From: an uncultured Gammaproteobacteria bacterium
Lineage (GTDB): Bacteria > Patescibacteriota > Patescibacteriia > HK-STAS-PATE-3
Reading direction: 5' to 3'
NCBI GenBank assembly: GCA_964637345.1
Contig: CAZWTD010000002.1
Span: forward strand, 6,426-70,425
Length of the DNA stretch: 64,000 nt
In this document: positions 2,594 to 45,921 of the stretch, in pieces
How the letters are laid out: each line of letters starts with the position of its first letter
Position numbering within the stretch: the stretch's first letter is position 1
Notes under the pieces: model-generated
What the model saw: only the letters and a program-made list of their open reading frames with translations
What the model was told of the DNA's origin: nothing
Databases searched by the model: none
Translations under genes and position numbers: made by a program

Positions 2594-3373
2594 TTATTTG
2601 TGAGGAAGGAGTGCTCCAAGCTGCCAAACAACCACTACGCCGAGGATAATGAGGACGAGCTGGAGAATGCTTCGGCCGATTTTACGTTCATGCTGGATTG
2701 TTGGTACAAGGTCGGCTAGAGCGATGTAGATGAAGTTCCCGATAACAAAGGCGAGTAGGGGTACTTCAATTCGTTCGACGAGTTGAGCGTTTAAGAGAAC
2801 GAGTAGAGCGCCTAAGGGGCTTACGAGCGCTCCGAGGAAGTTCCAGAGGAGCACCTTTGATCGTGCCATGCCACTATGGATGAGGATGCTGAAATCACCA
2901 ATTTCCTGTGGGATTTCGTGGGCAACGACGGCCAAGGAGGTAATAACTCCTAAGCCTGGGTCGGTTAAGAAGGCCAGGGCGATAATAGCGCCGTCGAGAA
3001 GGTTATGGATGGCGTCCCCGAAGATAACAAGCGGGCGAACGCTGGTCAGATTGGAATGCGGTTGCTCTTCGTGCGTCTCCTCGCCGTGCTGGTGCGAGTG
3101 GTGGTGCCAGACTAAAAGCTTTTCAAGGGTGAAGAAGGTGAGAACTCCAATAAGCGTTCCAACGAATACTGGGCCGGTGTTGTCTCCGGCGTGTTCGAGG
3201 GCCTCGGGGAATAACTCAAGGAAGCTAGCCCCGAGAATACTCCCGGCGGCGAAACTCATCAGATAGATTGACCAGCGCTTTATCCGCCATTCGTTGAGGA
3301 TGAGGATAAGTCCGCCAAGAAGGCCGAGGAGACTGACGCCGGTGGTGATGGCAATAATAGTGAGTGTTGACAT
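2594..3373 (-). CDS. zupT: ZIP-family zinc transporter (ZupT-like)
   Basis: A His-rich cytoplasmic loop (HHHSHQHGEETHEEQPH) and a conserved HEIPQEIGDF metal-binding TM motif are present. It lies immediately downstream of a Fur-family gene. Start is either at the MSTLT Met (3373) or the TTG at about 3399. Confidence 0.75.
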   Translation of the reverse strand: MSTLTIIAITTGVSLLGLLGGLILILNEWRIKRWSIYLMSFAAGSILGASFLELFPEALEHAGDNTGPVFVGTLIGVLTFFTLEKLLVWHHHSHQHGEETHEEQPHSNLTSVRPLVIFGDAIHNLLDGAIIALAFLTDPGLGVITSLAVVAHEIPQEIGDFSILIHSGMARSKVLLWNFLGALVSPLGALLVLLNAQLVERIEVPLLAFVIGNFIYIALADLVPTIQHERKIGRSILQLVLIILGVVVVWQLGALLPHK

Positions 3374-3381
3374 AGGAATCC

Positions 3382-3798
3382 TTAGGTACAGCGGACGCAA
3401 ACCCCGTAGAACTCGAGGGCGTGCCGTTGAGTGATAAATTGATAGTGTTTTCGGATGCGCCCCTCCTCTTCGCCGAGGTCGCGCTCAAGTTGGACGTCTT
3501 GAACCGTTTTACACCGAAGGCAGACGAGGTGGTGATGGTGGTTCCCGCGAAGCTCAAAGCGGCGGATTCCATCCCCAAAGTCGATAGCTTCAAGGAGGCC
3601 CTCCGCTTCGAGATGTTCAAGTTCTCGATAGACAGTGGTTTTATTTGGCTGCAGGCCAACGCGCGCGAGTCGTATTCCCACCTCAGACGCCGAGAGGGGA
3701 GCTGAGGCTCGATCCAGGACCTTTGAGAGGCCGATTCGAACACGGGTTATCCGGAGGCCCTTTTGTTGGATGCTGTGTAACAAGTTCGCGTTAGGCAT
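3382..3798 (-). CDS. zur: Fur-family metalloregulator, probably Zur
   Basis: Fur-family DNA-binding N-terminus with HHHHLVCLRC and C-terminal CVRC metal sites. It is in an operon with the ZIP transporter. The likely start is MPNANLL (ATG at 3796-3798), not the upstream TTG. Confidence 0.7.
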   Translation of the reverse strand: MPNANLLHSIQQKGLRITRVRIGLSKVLDRASAPLSASEVGIRLARVGLQPNKTTVYRELEHLEAEGLLEAIDFGDGIRRFELRGNHHHHLVCLRCKTVQDVQLERDLGEEEGRIRKHYQFITQRHALEFYGVCVRCT

Positions 3799-4983: not shown

Positions 4984-5672
4984 CGAAGAAGAACGTCCCG
5001 CGCCACGTTGCGATTATCCCAGACGGCAACCGCCGCTGGGCTCGACGAAACCATCTCCCATCGGTTCTCGGTCATAAACATGGCGTCGAAGCTTTTGAGC
5101 GTATTTGCGATGAGGCGCTCGCGCAGGGCGTTGAGGTCCTTACCTTTTATACCTTCTCAAGCGAAAATTGGCATCGGACGAAGACCGAGGTGCGCTATCT
5201 TTTCCGTTTGCTTGAGGACGTGTTTACGAAACGGCTTGAAAAGTTACAACGGCAAGGCATCCAACTTCGCATCTCCGGGAGAGTCGACGAGTTTCCGAAG
5301 CGACTTCAGGAGATTGTCGCGTCCGCGGTTCAGGCAACGAAAAAAAATCGCCGTGGGATTGTTCATCTCTGCTTGAACTACGGAGGAAGAAACGAACTTA
5401 TTGATGCAGTTCGTTCTCTTGTTCGAGCGAATACTCCGGCCGGACGGATCGATGCCCGCGCGATTTCAGCCCGCCTCTACCAGTCCGACCTCCCTGAGCC
5501 GGACTTGATCGTTCGAACTTCCGGTGAGCAGCGGCTTTCGGGTTTTTTACTTTGGCAGTCTGAGTACAGCGAGCTCTACTTTAGCGAGAAGCTGTGGCCA
5601 GATTTTCAGCCGGCTGATTTCCGGAAAGCGCTCGCCGAGTTTGTTCGCCGTCAGCGCCGTTACGGAGCGTAA
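4980..5672 (+). CDS. uppS: undecaprenyl diphosphate synthase (cis-prenyltransferase)
   Basis: HVAIIPDGNRRWA, FSSENWHR and RTSGEQRLSGFLLWQSEYSELYF are all characteristic UppS motifs. ATGA overlap with the upstream gene. Confidence 0.9.
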   Translation: MTKKNVPRHVAIIPDGNRRWARRNHLPSVLGHKHGVEAFERICDEALAQGVEVLTFYTFSSENWHRTKTEVRYLFRLLEDVFTKRLEKLQRQGIQLRISGRVDEFPKRLQEIVASAVQATKKNRRGIVHLCLNYGGRNELIDAVRSLVRANTPAGRIDARAISARLYQSDLPEPDLIVRTSGEQRLSGFLLWQSEYSELYFSEKLWPDFQPADFRKALAEFVRRQRRYGA

Positions 5673-12217: not shown

Positions 12218-12221
12218 CAAA

Positions 12222-12252
12222 TCACCCCGCGATTGGCGGGGTGATTGTGTTG
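12222..12252. terminator. putative bidirectional terminator hairpin between convergent uppP and the surface-protein gene
   Basis: TCACCCCGC-GATTG-GCGGGGTGA (9-bp stem) is flanked by an A-rich 5' side and a TTGTGTTG 3' side. The U-tract is weak. Confidence 0.4.
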
Positions 12253-14937: not shown

Positions 14938-17289
14938 TTACTCAAGAAGACGAGATCGGCGAAGGAGAGAGGCGCCGGCGACAAGGAAGCTTAGGCCAAG
15001 CAGCGCGAGGAGCGCATCGAGGGCCCCAGGTCCCGTTTCCGGAAGCGTGTCTTCCGCCCCAAGCACTTGCCCATTTGTTGCAGGTGTTTCATCGTCGTTC
15101 GTGTCTTCTGCGCCGAGAACTGAGCCCACAACAACGGCGACGCGCGCGGTCGAAGAAAGAGGATCAAGTCCATCCGCGCTCACGCGGGCAATATTGTCAT
15201 AAGTGCCTGCGCTCGCTGAGGGGGCAACCTTCGCCTCGTAGGTCGTTGTAATACTTTCTCCGGCCGGGATCGTACCAAGCATTTTCGCCATCGTTGTTGA
15301 ATCTGAGTCGGAGAAAGTGAAGGAGGTCGGTAGGGTATCGGTCAGAACAACATTCGTCGCAGCGTCAGATCCCGAGTTTTTTACTTTGACGGTGTAGGTG
15401 ACGACTGAACCCGGATGTGCTGATTCCCGATTCGCCGTTTTTTCAATTGTGAGCTTGGGTGAAGATGTAAGTGTCACGTCGGCGCTCGCCTCGAACGAAT
15501 CAACGCCCTTGGCCCGGACATTTGCGGTATTGATAACAATCGTATTGTCCTGAACAGTTGCGTCAACCTGTGTTGTCACTGAGAGTACGTACGAGTTTGG
15601 GGAAAGTGTTCCGAGGGACCACGTCACTGTCCGCGTCGCAGCGTCATAACTCGAACCGGAGCTTGCTTCAACAAAGGTGAGGTGTTCCGGGAGGGGATCG
15701 GAAACAATCACGTCTTCGGCATTTGCGTCGCTTACATTGAGCGTTAGGAAGTAGGTGATTGTTCCGCCAGCGGCTTGAATAGAGGCATTCGCTGATTTTT
15801 CAAGAGTGAGCTTTGGCGTAAGTGTTGGATCTCCTTCGTTTTCGCCACTCGCTTGGTAGTTTCCGAAGTTGAGGTTAGCAATTGTCTCTCCGAAGCCAAG
15901 CGAAATCGGGCCATGCATGGCGCTCGGCGTTCCCGGAAAGCTCTGGGTCCAGTCCGGCTGCATGACTTCTCGGACGAAGTAGGTTCCTGCGTAGGCCGGG
16001 GAGAAGGCATATGATCCGTCAACGGCTGTATGAGTTGTAGCGATTACCGTCGGGCTCCCGGTGAGGTTTCCGCCATTGCTGAAGGGGATGCCGAAACAGG
16101 CTAGGTCAAGGCGACTAATCACTCCGTCATGGTTCAAGTCAACGTTGGGGTTGAAGTTTTGGAACCCTTGCGTCCAGGCGACGAAATCTGACAGGTCAAT
16201 GATGTCGTTATCGTAGTAGTCGTATTCGTTGATATCTTGAGAGCAGGTCGTCAGAAGCTCGACAGTCCAGTGTTCGATGCCGTTTTCCTGGTTGTCCCAG
16301 TTGGTATTCTCATTTTCATCATTCCACTTGCCGCCGGAAATGGATCCCTGGCAGAGACCGAAGAAATGTTCAGTCGTCGCCGTTGAGCGGTTGTCATCCA
16401 GGTTTCGTTCAGGGTAGGGGACGTCCTGACTCGACGGAACTGGAGCAGGAAGAACTTGCTCAATGTCGGCGGTGTTCACGAGTCGTTCGCAGGTTAGAAC
16501 CGACGCGTCAATTGTTACCGTAAGCGAAATAGATCCAGTTTCGCCGATATCGAGCATTGGAATCGTCCAGGTCGCTACTCCGTTATTTACAGAGTCGGGG
16601 GTAGGCGTGGACGAGGCGATCGTTGCGCCGTGAGGAAGGACGTCATTCAGAACAACGTTGTAGGCCGGCCAGTTTCCTGTGTTTGCATAATTGATAACAT
16701 AGGTAATCCCCGTAAGTTTTTCCCCGTTCTCGGCAATTTTTTTATCAACTTGGAGATCAGGGTTTTTCGGGCAGAAACGTTGGGTTGTTGAAGTGGTATC
16801 TTCGACAATGCCGTCGTCCTCCGGAGTTGAAGCGGGTCCGACGCCACGAATATTGGCGGTATTCGTCACGGAAACGCATTCGGTCAGGGCGCCGAAGTCG
16901 AACGATGTGTCGAGGGAGACCGTCCCGTCGGTGTGCCCCGGGAGCGTGCCGATATTCCAGCTCACTGAATGAGAAACCGGATCGTAGGTTCCGCCATTCG
17001 AGGCGCTCATAAAACTAGACGTGGTGGGGAGCTTATCGGTGATGACGACATTGAAAAGCGTTATCCCTCCAGCGTTTTTGTACGATAAGACATACCCGGT
17101 GTCATTTGCTGGGTTGACGCTTTTTATAAGCTCCAGTGGGGAGGTGCCGGGGATAGCCGGTTCAGACGGAAGTACGGCCGCGGTCGTCAGGAGCGGCTGA
17201 GCGAGCAATCCAAAAAGAGTCGATACTGAAAGAATGAAGCGAGCGAGTCGCTGCCCCTTTCTCCAGTTTGATGCATATGATGGGTTCAT
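14938..17289 (-). CDS. large LPETG-anchored surface protein with DUF11 (conserved repeat) domains and dockerin-like Ca-binding motif
   Basis: Strong SD (GAGGAGG) before the ATG at 17289. Signal peptide, multiple LTYTxxVxNxGxxxAxNVVxTDxLP-type repeats, and NVDLNHDGVISRLDLA (dockerin/EF-hand-like). The C-terminus reads GQVLGAEDTLPETG followed by a hydrophobic stretch and RRSRLLE, a classic cell-wall sorting signal. Confidence 0.75.
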   Translation of the reverse strand: MNPSYASNWRKGQRLARFILSVSTLFGLLAQPLLTTAAVLPSEPAIPGTSPLELIKSVNPANDTGYVLSYKNAGGITLFNVVITDKLPTTSSFMSASNGGTYDPVSHSVSWNIGTLPGHTDGTVSLDTSFDFGALTECVSVTNTANIRGVGPASTPEDDGIVEDTTSTTQRFCPKNPDLQVDKKIAENGEKLTGITYVINYANTGNWPAYNVVLNDVLPHGATIASSTPTPDSVNNGVATWTIPMLDIGETGSISLTVTIDASVLTCERLVNTADIEQVLPAPVPSSQDVPYPERNLDDNRSTATTEHFFGLCQGSISGGKWNDENENTNWDNQENGIEHWTVELLTTCSQDINEYDYYDNDIIDLSDFVAWTQGFQNFNPNVDLNHDGVISRLDLACFGIPFSNGGNLTGSPTVIATTHTAVDGSYAFSPAYAGTYFVREVMQPDWTQSFPGTPSAMHGPISLGFGETIANLNFGNYQASGENEGDPTLTPKLTLEKSANASIQAAGGTITYFLTLNVSDANAEDVIVSDPLPEHLTFVEASSGSSYDAATRTVTWSLGTLSPNSYVLSVTTQVDATVQDNTIVINTANVRAKGVDSFEASADVTLTSSPKLTIEKTANRESAHPGSVVTYTVKVKNSGSDAATNVVLTDTLPTSFTFSDSDSTTMAKMLGTIPAGESITTTYEAKVAPSASAGTYDNIARVSADGLDPLSSTARVAVVVGSVLGAEDTNDDETPATNGQVLGAEDTLPETGPGALDALLALLGLSFLVAGASLLRRSRLLE

Positions 17290-17429
17290 GAGTACCTCCT
17301 CGTAAGTATTGAACGAATGAATCACGCGAAAATGTCTTTCACCGACGTTTTTAGGGTGAAAAGGAGCATCTCTAGCGTGTCAGGCATCATAGCATAGCCC
17401 TTGGTTTCGCCACAAACAGCCGTATTCTG

Positions 17430-19637
17430 TCAATCGAGTTCAGGAATCCGACGTCGGAAGAGCGTAACACCCAGTAACAGGCTCGTGAGTCCGAATGCGA
17501 GAATGCCATACTCGATTGGACTGGCTCCGGTTTCGGTCAGCGCTCCGAGCACTTGTCCGCGTTGGACAGTAATCGCTGCAGTGGCGGTCAATTGGGCAAC
17601 ATTATCTCCAACCACGCGTGCCGTGTTGATGAGTTGGCCGGCAGCGGCCGAGGCGCTCACGCGGACAGCGACGTGAATAATTCGTTCGTGGCCGGGGAGC
17701 AAATCCCCGAGCCTCCAGGTTGCCGTGCTTCCAGAGTAGTCAACAAAGGAGAGGCCGGCCGGAACTTCGTCGGTTAGCCGGAGGTTATACGCCGGGGCCA
17801 GTCCGTCGTTCCTGACGCTAAGGGTGTAGGTGACAACGCCCCCAATCGGAACAGTTGAGCGGTCGGCGACTTTTGTCAGAGTGAGCTTTGGACTTGGCGT
17901 ATTCGTTGGAATCACCAAACTTGAGACCTCAACCGTTGCTTTTGCATTCCGCGTTGGATGGTTTGAAGAGCTAACCGTAGCCACATTCTGATAACTTCCT
18001 GCTTTTGTGTCAGTCTTCACGACGACTGCATAGGTAAGGGTCCGGCTCGTTTCAGCTTTGAGCGTGCCAATCGGGAAGGAGCGATCAGTCGCTCCATTGT
18101 CGAGATAAACGAAGCCGGTCGGCAGAACATCCGAGACGACAACCTGAAGCGCGTCGCCGCTTCCCGTGTTTGAAACGACAATGGTGTAGAGGATTGTTTC
18201 ACCGGGCTTCACCGAGTCTTTGTCAGCAGATTTCACGATCGTGAGTTTCGGTGCGCCGCCTACCGTCAGCGATGCTGATGCACTCACCGGCTGTGCGTTG
18301 TCAGCCGAGAGCGTCGCGGTGTTATTGAGTTTTGCGCCAGGTTGCGTTCCAGCAGCGACTCGCGTCTGGACAGTCACGCTACCGCTGTCGCCTGGTTGGG
18401 CGCTTCCGAGCGTCCAGTTGATTTCGCGCGTTGGCGCGTTGTATGCGCCGCCGTTGCTCGCGCTGACAAAAGTGAGGCCCTCGGGCAGAGGATCGCGCAA
18501 GAGTAGTCCGTTGACTGCCTCGGTTCCGCTGACTGACCACGCGAGCGTGTAGGTGACAAGCTCGTTCGGAAGCGCAAGCGTCGGCGCTACCTCTTTAGTG
18601 AGGTGGAGCATCGCCAAGCTCGTGACAGTTGTGCTCGCGGAAGCCTGAACAGGTTTTAGCTCACTGGCCGAGAGGGTCGCGGTATTGGTAATCACTGTCC
18701 CGTTCGCGAGAGGGGAGATAATCTCTGCTGTCCACTGGACGCTGCCGTGGGCCCCGGGAGCTTGGTTACCCAAATTCCAGCGAAGTTCGTTCAGGTTGGG
18801 ATCGTACACGCCGCCTTGTGAGATTGTTGCAAAGATGAGATTGGCTGGAATTGGGTCGGTAAGAACCAGGTCGTATGCCGGACCGCTTCCGCTGACATTC
18901 CACGCAAGGGTATAGGTTAGCGTTGTTCCTGGAGCGGCAATTTCCGCGCTCACGGTTTTTTCTAGACCGATAGAAGGGATGCTTTCAATAGTTGTCGTTG
19001 CCGAATCAGACACTGGGTCAAGCCGGTCAGCGTCAATTGTTGCGGTATTTGTAATGACTGTCCCATTGCCGACCAGAGTATTGATCGTCCCGGTCCAGGT
19101 GAGCATCCCGTGTGCGCCGGATGCTTGGGTTCCGAGCGTCCAGGTAATGGTTGCAGTCCCAGAATCGTAGATCCCGCCGTTTTCGGCTTGCACGAAGCTC
19201 AGCTCTGTTGGAACGGGGTCTGTTACGACAACATTCGTGGCAGTTCCGTTTCCGCCAATGGACCAGTGAAGGGTGTACGTGAGCAAGTCGCCAGGATGTG
19301 CAAGGCTAAGGTCGACCTGTTTGTCGAGGTTGATTGTTGGGTGATTGGCTGGACTTGGGAGCGGAGCGGACGCAGTTGCTGGGGGTTCCGGCGACGTTTC
19401 AGGCTCTTCCGATTGGGTGGTTGATGGTTCCGTAGTTGAATTCGACCGTAGAGCGGGAGTGAGGTTATCCGCGAAGACGGCGGTCTCGGATTCTGGAATA
19501 GCCGCCTCTGTTGCTTCGAGGGTTTTTCCATACGCGAACCCAGGAAGGCAGGCTTGAAGAACAAGACTGACAAGTGCAATCACGGCCATTTTTCGACCGA
19601 AGCGCTGGCGGGAACGGAACACAGAGAAGTTCGGCAT
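17430..19637 (-). CDS. large DUF11-repeat surface protein with LTETG-type C-terminal anchor signal
   Basis: Start moved to MPNFSVFRS (ATG 19635-19637), which precedes a signal peptide. There are about 6 tandem DUF11-like repeats (LTYTLHWSIGGNGTATNVVVTDPVP...). The C-terminus reads RGQVLGALTETG followed by a hydrophobic stretch and FRRRIPELD. Confidence 0.7.
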   Translation of the reverse strand: MPNFSVFRSRQRFGRKMAVIALVSLVLQACLPGFAYGKTLEATEAAIPESETAVFADNLTPALRSNSTTEPSTTQSEEPETSPEPPATASAPLPSPANHPTINLDKQVDLSLAHPGDLLTYTLHWSIGGNGTATNVVVTDPVPTELSFVQAENGGIYDSGTATITWTLGTQASGAHGMLTWTGTINTLVGNGTVITNTATIDADRLDPVSDSATTTIESIPSIGLEKTVSAEIAAPGTTLTYTLAWNVSGSGPAYDLVLTDPIPANLIFATISQGGVYDPNLNELRWNLGNQAPGAHGSVQWTAEIISPLANGTVITNTATLSASELKPVQASASTTVTSLAMLHLTKEVAPTLALPNELVTYTLAWSVSGTEAVNGLLLRDPLPEGLTFVSASNGGAYNAPTREINWTLGSAQPGDSGSVTVQTRVAAGTQPGAKLNNTATLSADNAQPVSASASLTVGGAPKLTIVKSADKDSVKPGETILYTIVVSNTGSGDALQVVVSDVLPTGFVYLDNGATDRSFPIGTLKAETSRTLTYAVVVKTDTKAGSYQNVATVSSSNHPTRNAKATVEVSSLVIPTNTPSPKLTLTKVADRSTVPIGGVVTYTLSVRNDGLAPAYNLRLTDEVPAGLSFVDYSGSTATWRLGDLLPGHERIIHVAVRVSASAAAGQLINTARVVGDNVAQLTATAAITVQRGQVLGALTETGASPIEYGILAFGLTSLLLGVTLFRRRIPELD

Positions 19638-19952
19638 GGGTGCTCGAAGGTTAATCAAGATGATAATGAAAAAGCCAACGAAAGAGGACAAGAAAAAACG
19701 AAGAGACAGAAACTCCGTTTTGTTCGCTTTCGTTGGCTTTTCCCCGTCCTCCGCGGGTTTTTCAAGAAAGAACAAGTGCGAAAATGTGCGCGATCCCTCC
19801 GAAGGTGCGATGAATGTTTTGGGTGTTCTTTTCACAGGAAACCTTAGCAATCACTTTCGTTTGTGTCAACGTTAGCACAACATACTTTTCGTCCCTGTCA
19901 AGATAAAAAGCAAAGAGGGGAATCCGAGATTCTTCGTTGGAAAAATGAAGTT

Positions 19953-23977: not shown

Positions 23978-24044
23978 TCATTTCAGTTTTATCCTAAGCA
24001 ACCGCGAAGGATCTCAGCTAGCTTTCAACGATTTTCAACCAAAA

Positions 24045-24073
24045 GGACGGGCGAGCCCGTCCTTTTGGATTTT
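24045..24073. terminator. rho-independent terminator (bidirectional) after rplL
   Basis: GGACGGG-CGAG-CCCGTCC (7-bp GC stem), preceded by AAAAG and followed by TTTTGGATTTT. Confidence 0.6.
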
Positions 24074-40129: not shown

Positions 40130-41802
40130 AAACTCGAATACGTGGTATTCTCGTCGCGCTCATCCTCAGCTGCGGAATCACTTCCGGCGCAGCCGCAAAA
40201 TCATGGTCCTACGCTTCGTGGGATGTCTTGGCGACGATTGAGCCCGATTCGAGCGTCACGATTGAAGAAACGCAGACTTTTACGTTTTCAGGCGATTACT
40301 CTTGGGTGAATCGAACAATCCCAAAGACTAAGGGTATTTGGTTTGATGCGGTTGAGGTTCGGGACGGTTCCGGGCAACGGCTTTCCGAAGAAGATGTCGA
40401 TATTTCGAACGGGGGGAGCGATCTGAGCATCACAGTGCATTTTCCGAAGCTCCCAACTGATGCTGAAGAAACAAAAACCTGGACTTTCGTCTACCGAGCT
40501 CACAACGCGCTCGGGGATTTTTCGGATTACGATGAATTCTACTGGAACGCGGTCGGCGACGAACGCGAGGTTTCGGTTGAGCGGGCTCAAGTTCGGGTTC
40601 GTCTCCCCGGTGGCTATACGAGCGATCAAATCCAACAGCGTCTGCTCGTTGGGCCGCAAGGCTCGACAACCGAACAGTCAGGATTCTCCTTTACCGCGCC
40701 GGCGGAAGCGCAGTTTAGCGCCGAGTCGATCGCTCCCGGAGAATTTATGACCATTGTTCTTGGCTGGCCGAAGGGAGCGGTTATCCATCAGATCGTCGAA
40801 GAGCCGAAAAGTGCCTGGGATAAGGTATGGACCTGGCTCCTCTGGCCCTATCTTCTTTCCCCGATAGCAGTTTTCGCCTGGCTCATTAGGCGCTGGAAAA
40901 AGAGCGGTCGGGATCCAAAAGGAGCTTCAACGATTATTGCGCAGTATGACCCGCCAGACGGTCAGCCGCCTGCTGTTGTTGGAACACTAGTGGATGAACG
41001 CGTTGATCAGCGCGATATCACGGCAACGATTATCGACCTCGCTGTTCGAGGCTTCCTTACCGTTCGGGAGACGAAAAAGACCGGAATCTTCGGCGGTACA
41101 GAGTACACTTTCGAAAAGAAAAGGGCTGCAAATGATCCCACGCTCCGGCGCTTTGAGACCTTGTTCTTGGATGCCTTCTTTCATAGCCGGAACCAAGTTG
41201 AGCTCAGCGATCTGAAAAATACTTTTTACAAAAAGTTGAAGGAGATAAAGGAGGCAGTCTACGAAGAAACAACGAAGGCTGGATATTTTGAAGTTAACCC
41301 AGAGAAGGCGCGCAGTCGCTATTTGATTGCGGCGCTCGTATTCGGCTTTATCGGCTTTTTTGGGCTTTTCGTTCTTCTTGCTTGGGCCGCGCTGTTGTTG
41401 ATCTTTGCGTTTATCATGCCGCGTCGAACGCCGAAAGGGGTAGCGGCTAAAGAGTGGGCGCTTGGCTTTAAACTCTATCTTCACCGGGCCGAACGCTATC
41501 GGGTGAAAGCAATGACGCCTGAAACCTTCGAGCATTACCTGCCGCACGCGATGATCTTCGGGGTTGAGAAAGAGTGGGCCGAACGCTTTAGTGGCATTCT
41601 CAAAACCCCGCCGTCTTGGTACACGACAAATGATCCGAGTTTCCACTTTTCTTCGGTGTTGTTTGCGAGTCACCTCGCGTCCGCAATGAACACGACCGTT
41701 GCGCGAACACTTGCCTCATCCCCGTCCTCAAGTTCTGGTTTTAGCGGCGGGGGCGGATTTTCCGGCGGCGGGGGAGGCGGCGGGGGCGGGGGAGCTGGAT
41801 AG
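40126..41802 (+). CDS. DUF2207-family membrane protein with poly-Gly C-terminal tail
   Basis: Signal peptide, large extracytoplasmic domain, TM helices, cytoplasmic region, and a C-terminal GFSGGGGFSGGGGGGGGGGAG tail. This architecture is typical of DUF2207. Confidence 0.55.
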   Translation: MKTRIRGILVALILSCGITSGAAAKSWSYASWDVLATIEPDSSVTIEETQTFTFSGDYSWVNRTIPKTKGIWFDAVEVRDGSGQRLSEEDVDISNGGSDLSITVHFPKLPTDAEETKTWTFVYRAHNALGDFSDYDEFYWNAVGDEREVSVERAQVRVRLPGGYTSDQIQQRLLVGPQGSTTEQSGFSFTAPAEAQFSAESIAPGEFMTIVLGWPKGAVIHQIVEEPKSAWDKVWTWLLWPYLLSPIAVFAWLIRRWKKSGRDPKGASTIIAQYDPPDGQPPAVVGTLVDERVDQRDITATIIDLAVRGFLTVRETKKTGIFGGTEYTFEKKRAANDPTLRRFETLFLDAFFHSRNQVELSDLKNTFYKKLKEIKEAVYEETTKAGYFEVNPEKARSRYLIAALVFGFIGFFGLFVLLAWAALLLIFAFIMPRRTPKGVAAKEWALGFKLYLHRAERYRVKAMTPETFEHYLPHAMIFGVEKEWAERFSGILKTPPSWYTTNDPSFHFSSVLFASHLASAMNTTVARTLASSPSSSSGFSGGGGFSGGGGGGGGGGAG

Positions 41803-42610: not shown

Positions 42611-43624
42611 ATGGACCAAGCTCATCTTCAGCCTGACACTCCTTTGAACAGTACGCCGAAACCCGAATCGCCTCAGCCTCCACAAGAGACACCTCCGGTG
42701 AAGTCGGGAGCAGTTCAGGAAGTCCATCATTATCATCACGATAAAAAAGGTGGCTTTAGTCTTGCCCGTTTGCTGTTCGGGGGGATTCTGATTCTCATTG
42801 GCATCGCGTATCTTGGAAATTCCTTTGGCTGGTTTTCGGTAAACGTCGACTTCTGGCAGCTTTGGCCCATCCTCATCGTTTTCCTTGGACTCTCGATTCT
42901 CTCCCGGCACGGCTGGGTTGCCTGGGTAGTCGGTTCGCTCGTCACGCTCATCGTCTTAGGTGGTGTTGCATACGCAATCTTCGTCGGCTTCCCGGTTCGC
43001 GATTTATCGTCTGAGACCATCTCGGTTGATCGGTCGACCGAGGTAAGCGAGGCGAAAATCAATATCGCGACTGGAGCGGGAGAGCTAACGTTGCGCGGCG
43101 GTTCAGACAAGCTCGCCGACGGGACCTTCACCTCGAACGTTACCACGCTCACGAAAAGCGAAACGATTAGAGAGACGGTGCAAGAGCTTGACCTTGAGAT
43201 GCGCGGCCAGTGGCGCGGTTTTGGCTCAACCCGGAATGAGTTGTCGCTCAACCTGACGAAGGATCTTCCGATCGACCTTTCGATTGATTCTGGTGCGATG
43301 GATATGGAGCTTGATTTGGCTGAGGTCGTCGTGAAGCGTTTAAGCATCGACACCGGAGCCTCGAGCCTCGATCTCGTTCTCGGCGATCGCGCGGATCAAA
43401 GCGACATCCTCGTGAAGGCCGGGGCGAGCGCTGTAACAATCGCCGTTCCCCGCAGTGCGGGCGTACGTTTGACCATCGACGCCGGGCTGACCTCGAAAAC
43501 CTTTGAAGATTTTACGCGAGTCGACGAGAACGTTTACGAATCGGATGGGTATGCCGAAGCGGCGAAGAAAATCGATATCGAGCTTGACCTCGGCGTTTCG
43601 AGCTTGACGGTAAACTGGCGCTAA
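42611..43624 (+). CDS. membrane protein with C-terminal LiaF-like/'toastrack' (DUF4097/DUF2154-like) beta-helix domain
   Basis: Pro/Gln-rich N-terminus and 3-4 TM helices. The C-terminal domain is repetitive, with alternating short beta strands (IDLSIDSGAMDMELDL...LSIDTGASSLDLVLGD). It commonly pairs with PspC-domain genes. Confidence 0.45.
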   Translation: MDQAHLQPDTPLNSTPKPESPQPPQETPPVKSGAVQEVHHYHHDKKGGFSLARLLFGGILILIGIAYLGNSFGWFSVNVDFWQLWPILIVFLGLSILSRHGWVAWVVGSLVTLIVLGGVAYAIFVGFPVRDLSSETISVDRSTEVSEAKINIATGAGELTLRGGSDKLADGTFTSNVTTLTKSETIRETVQELDLEMRGQWRGFGSTRNELSLNLTKDLPIDLSIDSGAMDMELDLAEVVVKRLSIDTGASSLDLVLGDRADQSDILVKAGASAVTIAVPRSAGVRLTIDAGLTSKTFEDFTRVDENVYESDGYAEAAKKIDIELDLGVSSLTVNWR

Positions 43625-43631
43625 CCCGTAT

Positions 43632-43650
43632 GCGCAAGTGAAGCTTGCGC
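43632..43650. repeat. REP-like hairpin GCGCAAG-TGAAG-CTTGCGC (3' flank of RAYT gene)
   Basis: Perfect 7-bp inverted repeat, 8 nt after the LiaF-like stop and 10 nt from the RAYT stop. Confidence 0.5.
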
Positions 43651-43659
43651 GAGATTCCG

Positions 43660-44139
43660 TCACTGCAGATTATCAACGATAATTCCTCGGGGAGTTCCCG
43701 TCAGGCGCTGTTGTGCTGATGACCAGGGATATTCCTCGGGTCGCTGACAAAGTCCGGCGCGAACTGGATTAAGATGGATGTAGGTTGCTTTCACCCTGTA
43801 ATCTTCTGATCCTCGAATTCCATGATCGTAGTACTCGCGTTGAAATACTCGTCCCGAGCTATTGTTGAGTTCATGAAATCGCCGTGCGAAGCTGCTGTGG
43901 ATTGCTTGCATTAAGTGGCCGAGCGATTCCCTCTGTGCGGGTAGTACGATGGCGTGATAATGGTCAGGCATGAGGACATATTCAAAAACGACAAAGTGGT
44001 ATTTTGCCCTTTGTTCGTTGATTATGTGTTCCATGGATCGGGCAAAAACAGGATCAAGGAACCATTGTTTTCGATAGAGAAAATTGACCGTGACAAAAAA
44101 CGGTATAGTGTGTATCCGGAGACGTTTTCGGGTCCACAT
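43660..44139 (-). CDS. REP-associated tyrosine transposase (RAYT; IS200/IS605 Y1 transposase family)
   Basis: HuH motif PDHYHAIV and a catalytic Tyr region (YIHLNPVRAG). The size of 159 aa is typical. It is flanked by REP-like hairpins on both sides. Confidence 0.75.
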   Translation of the reverse strand: MWTRKRLRIHTIPFFVTVNFLYRKQWFLDPVFARSMEHIINEQRAKYHFVVFEYVLMPDHYHAIVLPAQRESLGHLMQAIHSSFARRFHELNNSSGRVFQREYYDHGIRGSEDYRVKATYIHLNPVRAGLCQRPEEYPWSSAQQRLTGTPRGIIVDNLQ

Positions 44140-44192
44140 GGAGATGCTCCCGCCACCTTTGTCGACGCATATGGTACCATACTATTACGCGA

Positions 44193-44211
44193 GCGCAAGC
44201 TTTGCTTGCGC
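44193..44211. repeat. REP-like hairpin GCGCAAGC-TTT-GCTTGCGC (5' flank of RAYT gene)
   Basis: 8-bp perfect inverted repeat 54 nt upstream of the RAYT start, with the same core as the 43632 copy. Confidence 0.5.
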
Positions 44212-44235
44212 TTACGCTGAATGGAAGCTTGAAGT

Positions 44236-44805: not shown

Positions 44806-44828
44806 ACGAAGAAGGAGTGAGCAGAAGC

Positions 44829-45314
44829 TCACTCCTTTGAGAGGCGACGGTACAAGGACCAGGGGAGAAGACGGAGCGGGATTTCGCGGAGCCACCACAT
44901 GAGCGGCGACCGCGTCCAGATCTGGGTTGATAGCGGGTCAAACCATCGAACTTCGGAGCCCTTCGATGGCTTGTGGATATGGGGCACAGCAAAGCCGAGT
45001 TGCCGAAGGTCCCGAGCACAGCGCCAGGCGTGCGGCGGGGCTGCGAAGAGGCTGACCGAACGCCAGCCGCGTTCCCGGGCGAGCGCCTGGAAGCGGAGGG
45101 CGATGTCGAGCGATGACAAGTAGCGGCCGGGTCGAGGCTGAATCACAGTCACGACAACGCCAGGCGACGTGATGGCGATGTCTGGTTGTGTTACAACCGT
45201 GAGGTTATTGTATGAGGCCCAGCCTCCCGCATAGCGCGCGAGGTATTGATTGGGTTTTGTTGAGCTCGGTACTCCGAACGCGAAAACCAGTACGACATCA
45301 GTCCTGGCGTCCAA
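44829..45314 (-). CDS. DUF218-like (YdcF/ElyC/SanA family) protein
   Basis: Rossmann-like pattern with HAWRCA, similar to the DUF218 HMxRA motif. Weak. Confidence 0.35.
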   Translation of the reverse strand: MDARTDVVLVFAFGVPSSTKPNQYLARYAGGWASYNNLTVVTQPDIAITSPGVVVTVIQPRPGRYLSSLDIALRFQALARERGWRSVSLFAAPPHAWRCARDLRQLGFAVPHIHKPSKGSEVRWFDPLSTQIWTRSPLMWWLREIPLRLLPWSLYRRLSKE

Positions 45315-45921
45315 GGATTACCTCCTCTATTCCGGTGTGAAGGTGCGGTACCTCGCGCCTTTCTTAGTACAAAAAAGAGGAAAAGTCAATAGAAAGGCCC
45401 CGCGCGCTGCAAGTGACAGGACCGGGAACAGAGCAGCAGCGCGCGGGGGTTCAGACGGAACGATACGCAGTTGATTTGGCTCTACCGCTTGATTCCGCGG
45501 GGCGAGAGGGTAGGATCCTCAAGGCGGCGTCAAACGGGCACTCTAAGTATAAACCTGACGGCAAAAGCGTCAAGAGAAAGCGCCGCGGCCCGTACTCAAC
45601 CACGAGGGGCTGGTTGAGTTGATGGGGCGGCCGCGGCGCTGGCTTCGTTCGTACTTGTTCGGCGTGATTCCTCGCGCAGAGGGTGGGAAACACCGAACAA
45701 GGTGCGTGGGGGTGACTACCAGGGCGGTAGTCATGTCGGCCAGGGGCTGAAGCTTGGGGACGAATCACGGTCGATGGGTCCGAAGCCGAAGCTTCGGAAT
45801 GCTGCGCGCGCCATCGGCGTTTTCGTTCCATATTCTCCAGGCCTTCCGAGCAGGAAGAGCATAGCGGAGCGGGATGACGATGTCAACGATTCTTTTAAAA
45901 AGGTGTGCTAGACTGTTGCCT

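Follow-up and report, generated by a model that had tools for sequence, protein, structure and literature searches.

The 64,000-nt stretch of DNA analyzed here (the window; contig CAZWTD010000002.1 of assembly GCA_964637345.1, from an uncultured bacterium) carries on its minus strand a small gene of the REP-associated tyrosine transposase type (RAYT; REP, repetitive extragenic palindrome), which is bracketed by two short REP-like hairpins. RAYT genes with their hairpins are a textbook example of how a transposase, once domesticated, coexists with non-autonomous repeats. Gene and hairpins together make up a 590-bp unit (Table 1), flanked by a PspC/LiaF-like gene pair and a gene for a YgjP-like metallopeptidase. 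The unit occupies most of the 611-bp spacer between the LiaF-like and YgjP-like genes, with 2 nt and 19 nt remaining: the downstream hairpin unit starts 2 nt past the LiaF-like stop codon (43622-43624) and finishes 9 nt from the RAYT stop codon (43660-43662), and 19 nt separate the end of the upstream unit from the YgjP-like start codon (44236). Relative to the RAYT gene, the palindromes lie 9 nt beyond the stop codon and 53 nt ahead of the start codon.

An earlier reading, made from the sequence alone (the sequence-only reading), had placed one palindrome on either side of the gene, at 43632-43650 and 44193-44211, and both were found there. The downstream palindrome, GCGCAAG-TGAAG-CTTGCGC (GCGCAAGTGAAGCTTGCGC), has a 7-bp stem and a 5-nt loop; the upstream palindrome, GCGCAAGCTTTGCTTGCGC (GCGCAAGC-TTT-GCTTGCGC), has an 8-bp stem and a 3-nt loop, or a 9-bp stem if extended to 44192-44212. 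The pattern GCGCAAG-N3-7-CTTGCGC yielded 2 matches in the 64 kb compared to 0.00 in 100 dinucleotide-preserving shuffles. Both copies also fit GCGCAAG-N5-CTTGCGC, of which the 64 kb hold exactly 2 sites. No third copy was found in the window at up to one mismatch, and matches with 2-3 mismatches were at chance level (9 observed vs. 6.1 +/- 2.3 expected).

The similarity between the two copies exceeds the palindrome. A repeat finder reported a 24-nt inverted repeat (I16) with arms at 43627-43650 and 44193-44216 that are 88% complementary, and both arms share an outward CGTA tag. Read with the tag first, the two copies are CGTA-T-GCGCAAG-TGAAG-CTTGCGC (43627-43650) and CGTA-A-GCGCAAG-CAAAG-CTTGCGC (44193-44216). 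In the inverted register the tag matched at all four positions and the loop at 3 of 5, compared to 2 of 6 in the 5' flank and 1 of 5 in the loop in the direct register; the copies are therefore inverted, with tags outward. Folded as single-stranded DNA (ssDNA), the downstream hairpin reached -8.8 kcal/mol (z = -2.9) and the upstream hairpin -13.2 kcal/mol (z = -4.1), with a second value of -13.6 kcal/mol (z = -4.5) for the latter. Neither hairpin is followed by a T-run, so they are not terminator-like.

The protein matched Pfam Y1_Tnp (PF01797) at 1.9e-9 and contained the motifs PDHYHAIV (H60-Y-H62), Y120-IHL-N124-P125 and a WSS tail motif. It passed the NCBIfam model of REP-associated tyrosine transposases (NF047646, REP_Tyr_transpos; 114.2 bits, cut-off 80) and failed the IS200/IS605 model (NF033573; 20.2 bits, cut-off 55). 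Among solved structures, Escherichia coli TnpA_REP (4ER8) was the sole significant sequence match (1.2e-10), with ISDra2 TnpA at 0.26. An AlphaFold2 model built from 28 homologues had a mean pLDDT (predicted local distance difference test) of 91.9, and a Foldseek search with this model placed 4ER8 at the top (template modeling score, TM, 0.77; E 1.7e-11), with IS200/IS605 transposases at a TM of ~0.58. Every invariant column of the 28-homologue alignment was retained, namely H60, H62, Y120, N124, P125, V126, G129 and L130. Because of these family and fold matches and the presence of the invariant columns, the protein looks catalytically intact. The sequence-only reading was thus right to call the gene a RAYT with an HUH motif (H60/H62) and a tyrosine for catalysis (Y120); its further label, an IS200/IS605-type Y1 transposase, fails for the IS200 type.

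The residues through which E. coli TnpA_REP reads its GTAG guide (roles from PMC3479197 and PMC6006769) were mapped onto the window protein via the 4ER8 sequence alignment. Q95, H101 and R104 of E. coli are conserved, and three guide residues are changed (W94 to F, W99 to Y and E100 to D). Together with L in place of R21 and A in place of the metal ligand H123, this pattern fits a same-type enzyme whose tag is related to that of E. coli but not identical. A Shine-Dalgarno-like GGGAG (44147-44151, minus strand) lies 7 nt 5' of the RAYT ATG.

Table 1. Parts of the RAYT locus in the window (positions of the window; part coordinates of the upstream unit run along the minus strand)
Feature	Position	Strand	Basis
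Whole REPtron-like unit, 590 bp	43627..44216	-	coordinates; absent from L102 neighborhood; lowest gene GC
REP-like unit downstream of RAYT	43627..43650	+	sequence, pattern search, I16, ssDNA fold
Parts of the downstream unit	CGTA 43627-43630; T 43631; GCGCAAG 43632-43638; TGAAG loop 43639-43643; CTTGCGC 43644-43650		
RAYT/TnpA_REP-type HUH-Y1 endonuclease gene, 159 aa	43660..44139	-	open reading frame, Pfam, NCBIfam, structure
Leader, upstream hairpin to start codon	44140..44191	-	sequence
REP-like unit upstream of RAYT	44192..44216	-	sequence, pattern search, I16, ssDNA fold, tagged-hairpin scan
Parts of the upstream unit	CGTA 44216-44213; 9-bp stem AGCGCAAGC, loop AAA, stem GCTTGCGCT (44212-44192)	-	

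Loci of relatives were collected by exact-protein look-ups and by an alignment-seeded metagenome scan (80 loci, L106-L185). For every relative gene, a script compared one flank with the other in search of inverted repeats, and copies were counted separately. Short relatives (~150-190 aa) were bracketed by inverted short hairpins with the tag outward, as in the window, and long relatives (~215-325 aa) by terminal inverted repeats (TIRs) with GGGG[AT][CG]A[CG]. The tag-outward layout was present in at least nine short metagenome relatives, each with its own hairpin and tag. Tag and first stem arm read GTAG-CGCAGAGTCCC in L096 (one copy upstream, three downstream), GGAAG-CGCACGGCT in L099/L100, GGAAG-CACCACGC in L108, GGGAG-GGCACGAC in L127, GGGAG-GGACGGCG in L156, GTAG-CGGCGGTC in L178 and GTAGG-GGCCGCC in L135; the same tagged-hairpin layout was seen in L122, L154, L176 and L181. 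The hairpin sequence varies with the protein and the layout stays constant, as expected for an enzyme and its own recognition site. Since the relatives repeat the topology with different hairpins and tags, gene and hairpins are read as one unit, a REPtron. The RAYT-plus-REP arrangement put forward in the sequence-only reading is upheld in this sense: the flanking hairpins are cognate, inverted and tag-outward, and their layout recurs in relatives. A neighbor-joining tree of the core domain placed the window protein in the hairpin-flanked half, beside E. coli TnpA_REP and L096 and apart from the TIR-flanked clade.

Further observations were made at the relatives' loci. Across L106-L185, the flank architecture followed protein length and clade (GGGG[AT][CG]A[CG] repeats vs. 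GTAG/GGAAG/GGGAG hairpins), and the non-GTAG tags GGAAG and GGGAG suggest, from the sequences compared, a guide diversity beyond the canonical GT[AG]G. At L096 (3486-3832), 3' of the RAYT homologue P0003, three tandem repeats are seen of a ~116-nt segment that runs from inside the 3' end of the gene to a REP of the GTAG type. This cluster, which resembles a bacterial interspersed mosaic element (BIME), was apparently made by duplication of the gene end together with the REP. The locus of the closest homologue (L097, 42% identity) is truncated where its contig stops, and the hairpins upstream of the gene are different there. Loci L127, L178 and L181, each of 10 kb, had hairpin copies only beside the RAYT gene.

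RarA from the window shares 70-79% identity with proteins encoded in metagenome-assembled genomes (MAGs) of Patescibacteria, Nomurabacteria and Kerfeldbacteria, and the relatives found for the LiaF-like neighbor are all labeled Patescibacteria. Judged by these proteins, the host is a Patescibacteria bacterium of the candidate phyla radiation (CPR) and not a proteobacterium. Its closest available relative, L102, shares 58% identity with the window in LiaF, 60% in YgjP, 60% in MutY and 75% in DUF2207, and maintains the gene order DUF2207, PspC-LiaF, YgjP, MutY. Neither a RAYT nor the hairpin of the window was found in this syntenic neighborhood. The LiaF-YgjP gap of L102 (6006-8595) holds three unrelated genes (132 aa, 166 aa and a short-chain dehydrogenase/reductase), and the gap is consequently regarded as a variable spot in this lineage. 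L103-L105 were without RAYT and without hairpin, and their downstream genes differ.

The GC content of the RAYT gene, 47.3%, is the lowest of the 46 window genes (mean 54.5%, z = -2.5), with 45.6% at third codon positions. The top non-self homologue of its protein among 5.8 billion clustered proteins had 42% identity, and plasmid and phage collections contained no RAYT homologue above ~32% identity. Since L102 keeps the neighborhood without the unit, the gene has the lowest GC and the best homologue reaches 42%, the unit was most likely acquired horizontally into a variable spot. An insertion event as such is presumed, as no exact empty site was found and three other genes stand in the gap of L102.

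Additional dispersed copies of the hairpin had been expected in the sequence-only reading, and this expectation was disappointed within the window: no other copy with up to one mismatch was present in the remaining 63.4 kb, including ~15 kb outside long open reading frames (ORFs). Zero copies in 63.4 kb give a 95% upper bound of ~47 copies per Mb. No pile-up of hairpins near the RAYT gene was seen in the 43 kb and 20 kb that flank it, and no paired inverted REPs (REPIN doublets or BIME clusters) occur in the window, where one hairpin stands on each side of the gene. No second RAYT and no other CGTA-tagged hairpin family were found in the window. REPs are defined as a dispersed multi-copy, mostly extragenic family, usually with more than 100 members per genome (PMC2817692), and in the case of recently acquired RAYTs they are reported to accumulate near the gene (Nunvar et al., 2010, PMC2817692). 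Solitary REPtrons are not without precedent: REP-like elements also decorate REPtrons in species without REP families (Di Nocera et al., 2013, PMC3733652, Additional file 4).

The tagged pattern GTANGCGCAAGN5CTTGCGC was searched in 185,579 species genomes, among whose hits the source contig does not appear. There were 95 matches, compared to ~70 estimated by chance for 17 specified bases, and no RAYT was found near any of the 95. In a Pseudomonadota MAG (JBMONF01), a ~190-nt repeat was seen in three dispersed copies (L032, ~250-430; L050, ~5160-5340; L072, ~3260-3440), each with GGTAA-GCGCAAGC-TGC-GCTTGCGC. Its tag and stem are identical to those of the upstream unit of the window and its loop is different; none of the three loci contains a RAYT. 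At least one proteobacterial genome thus contains this type of hairpin as a repeat. Five Melainabacteria MAG species (L001, L003, L008, L063 and L068) have one GTA[GA]-GCGCAAGC-N3-GCTTGCGC hairpin each in a conserved context, which by sequence is one orthologous intergenic hairpin across species and no dispersed repeat.

Compared with known systems, the E. coli K-12 REPtron (rayT/yafM, BIME-flanked, 4ER8) shares with the window the protein family and fold, the HUH and Y---NP motifs, residues Q95, H101 and R104, and the bracketing of the gene by inverted tagged hairpins. The two proteins are only 23-28% identical. In E. coli the REPs form long, imperfect hairpins tagged by GTAG, arranged in BIME clusters and in hundreds of dispersed copies, whereas the window hairpins are short and perfect (7-9 bp), have a CGTA-W tag, occur once on each side and have no dispersed copy in the 64 kb. 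The short-REP RAYTs of Pseudomonas and Xanthomonads (subclass 2.5 of Quentin, Group 3 of Bertels) resemble the window protein in their length of ~150 aa, the DH.H form of the HUH motif and the change of E100 to D. The REPs of subclass 2.5 are short, only 0-2 nt separate the tag from the stem, and tag and stem together stay within a narrow range of lengths (PMC6006769); the window units are alike in these respects. A comparison by motifs set YIHLNP and FQ in the window protein against YI[VI]ANP and WQ in subclass 2.5, and the very large REP populations of that subclass are unlike the window. REPtrons without REP families (PMC3733652) and RAYTs with gene-near REPs (PMC2817692) are in the same state as the window and as L127, L178 and L181, but the published cases belong to Proteobacteria and other large genomes, whereas the host of the window is a CPR bacterium.

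A Y1 gene between terminal inverted repeats is also the layout of the TIRtrons or TIRYTs (subclass 2.1 of Quentin, Group 1 of Bertels), and subclass 2.1 contains, like the window protein, YIHLNP, FQ and "SS" tail motifs. TIRtron proteins are ~215-325 aa long with a C-terminal helix-turn-helix (HTH) and have GGGGWSAS repeats, whereas the window protein has 159 aa and hairpin repeats. The architecture with GGGG[AT][CG]A[CG] repeats is that of the TIRtron (Di Nocera et al., 2013, PMC3733652) and of subclass 2.1 (Quentin et al., 2018, PMC6006769). A domain search found no HTH in the window protein, and no GGGG motif was found in the flanking repeats. Subclass 2.1/TIRYT, first considered from FQ, YIHLNP and the SS tail, was rejected by the flank analysis and the tree. 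With IS200, the tnpA-only member of the IS200/IS605 family, the unit shares a small HUH/Y1 gene, subterminal hairpins and a total size below 1 kb; it differs in having Y---NP instead of Y---Q and ends that are inverted rather than on one strand. No tnpB neighbor and no IS200-type ends, which had been named in advance as signs pointing away from a RAYT, are present at the locus, whose neighbors are LiaF-like and YgjP-like, and the window holds no second near-identical copy of the 590-bp unit. An IS200/IS605 element was ruled out by the failed model (20.2 bits), the lack of tnpB, the inverted ends and Y---NP.

The data suggest that the 590-bp unit is probably a solitary REPtron, an intact RAYT-type gene with two cognate sites. 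The unit is a gene with two sites of its own and no demonstrated REP/REPIN system, since no dispersed copies have been seeded within the 64 kb. Binding, cleavage and present activity of the enzyme, as well as the horizontal origin of the unit, are what we infer, the mechanism from the homologous TnpA_REP of E. coli (Messing et al., 2012, PMC3479197). In each site a 5' CGTA tag is followed, after one base, by a short GC-rich stem-loop with a stem of 7-9 bp and a loop of 3-5 nt, and because the copies are inverted, each DNA strand offers one tag and hairpin. The hairpins would extrude once the region becomes single-stranded during replication or transcription. By analogy with the E. coli enzyme, a monomer may then bind ssDNA at the foot of the hairpin, once extruded, and at the 5' tag, with two tag bases choosing the cleavage dinucleotide and H60, H62 and N124 holding a metal ion. 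Attack by Y120 would give a 5'-phosphotyrosyl intermediate, after which the strand could be re-joined or transferred. As the upstream hairpin lies in the RAYT leader, autoregulation of the gene through it is conceivable, if speculative; equally speculative, the 3' ends of the two convergent genes could be protected by the hairpin that separates them.

Several points weigh against a solitary REPtron. The tags CGTA-T and CGTA-A, that is GTA[T/A], failed the test for a canonical GT[AG]G tag, their fourth base not being G. In the protein, R21 of E. coli is replaced by L and the metal ligand H123 by A, and a promoter search found no sigma-70 consensus promoter for the RAYT gene. The tree, with long branches and no support values, is indicative only. 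No exact empty site was found among L102-L105. Only ~64 kb were searched in a genome likely near 1 Mb, so that a low-density REP family of up to ~47 copies per Mb is compatible with the result. In a full REP/REPIN-RAYT system, as proposed in the sequence-only reading, the two flanking hairpins would be the gene-proximal members of a genome-wide family maintained by a single-copy RAYT. In favor of such a system are a RAYT between inverted REPs, which is the diagnostic arrangement (Nunvar et al., 2010, PMC2817692; Bertels et al., 2017, PMC5581495), a window protein on the REP-associated side of the family, and the four copies clustered at the gene in the relative L096; the dispersed ~190-nt repeat of the Pseudomonadota MAG also speaks for it. 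We nevertheless consider it unlikely, given the 63.4 kb without another copy (~15 kb of it free of long ORFs), the absence of copies near the gene, contrary to recently acquired RAYTs (Nunvar et al., PMC2817692), the 95 matches compared to ~70 by chance with none near a RAYT, and the compactness of CPR genomes.

An autonomous mini insertion sequence, moving as a whole 590-bp unit, IS200-like with inverted ends, and inserted into the LiaF-YgjP spacer, is very improbable. The window protein fails the IS200 model and passes that of the RAYTs, and the ends of the unit are inverted, whereas those of IS200/IS605 are on one strand. The spacer is indeed filled almost exactly, with 2 + 19 nt over and inverted repeats at the very borders of the unit, and the unit is missing from the syntenic region of L102 and has the lowest GC within the window; yet it occurs once in 64 kb with no fragment elsewhere in the window, vertical inheritance and a single copy are typical of RAYTs (PMC5581495), and no precise empty site was found. 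The hairpins could also be ordinary host elements (terminators or mRNA stabilizers) that stand beside a transposase gene by chance, an explanation to which we give hardly any credence. Both stem-loops are stable and the downstream one has convergent genes on its two sides, as is typical of terminators, but identical 7-bp stems with a shared tag occur in inverted orientation at the RAYT gene only, with 0 expected, and relatives repeat the topology with unrelated hairpin sequences. A terminator reading was rejected, as both hairpins lack a T-run and the terminator-like hairpins native to this genome differ, having A/T tracts on both sides.

The REPtron is a known arrangement, and the unusual part here is the CPR host. 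Non-IS Y1 genes occur in many phyla beyond Proteobacteria, mainly in large genomes (Quentin et al., 2018, PMC6006769). Because of this enrichment in large genomes, it is unusual for a CPR genome to have an intact one; because they are already documented in many phyla, the taxonomic surprise is moderate. The notable genomic background claimed in the sequence-only reading is therefore retained as to a non-proteobacterial host and tempered as to the surprise, for which the small size of the CPR genome is the main ground. The finding is at the level of annotation and brings no new mechanism. With an intact REPtron in a CPR bacterium, the range of hosts now includes a very small genome, and if the remaining genome is also without copies, the unit would present a natural state of a gene plus two sites only, which is useful for asking how a REP population begins and if the cassette itself can move. 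It is a rather doubtful possibility that the unit is a REPtron in its founder state, a cassette recently transferred horizontally into a streamlined CPR genome before REP proliferation and possibly self-mobile. If so, it would show how RAYT systems colonize new lineages, including those with ultra-small genomes, in which one would not expect non-IS Y1 genes, and a cassette that itself moved would be smaller than IS200.

Other features of the window were also recorded. Perfect 10-13 bp hairpins with complementary A/T tracts on both sides are located at 12220-12246, 24039-24068 and 44812-44837; an example, AAGGAGTGAGC-AGAA-GCTCACTCCTT, separates orf161 from the YgjP-like gene, with which it is convergent. 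These hairpins have the look of bidirectional terminators and are unlike the RAYT-flanking hairpins in style. A gene-free stretch of ~450 nt (45385-45835, plus strand; GC ~61%) between a 161-aa ORF on the minus strand and dtd folded at -203.5 kcal/mol compared to -177.3 +/- 6.2 kcal/mol for shuffled sequences (z = -4.2; 0 of 100 shuffles as good). It matched no Rfam family and showed no similarity among the 185 loci compared, and is a candidate structured non-coding RNA of the CPR bacterium. On the minus strand (14938-19850), two adjoining large proteins of 795 and 806 aa consist of DUF11 repeats, with DNA copies at 363-nt spacing, and are probably surface proteins. The DUF2207 protein has a glycine-rich C-terminal tail (...GGGGFSGGGGGGGGGGAG) encoded at 41650-41802, with a local GC peak of ~63%.

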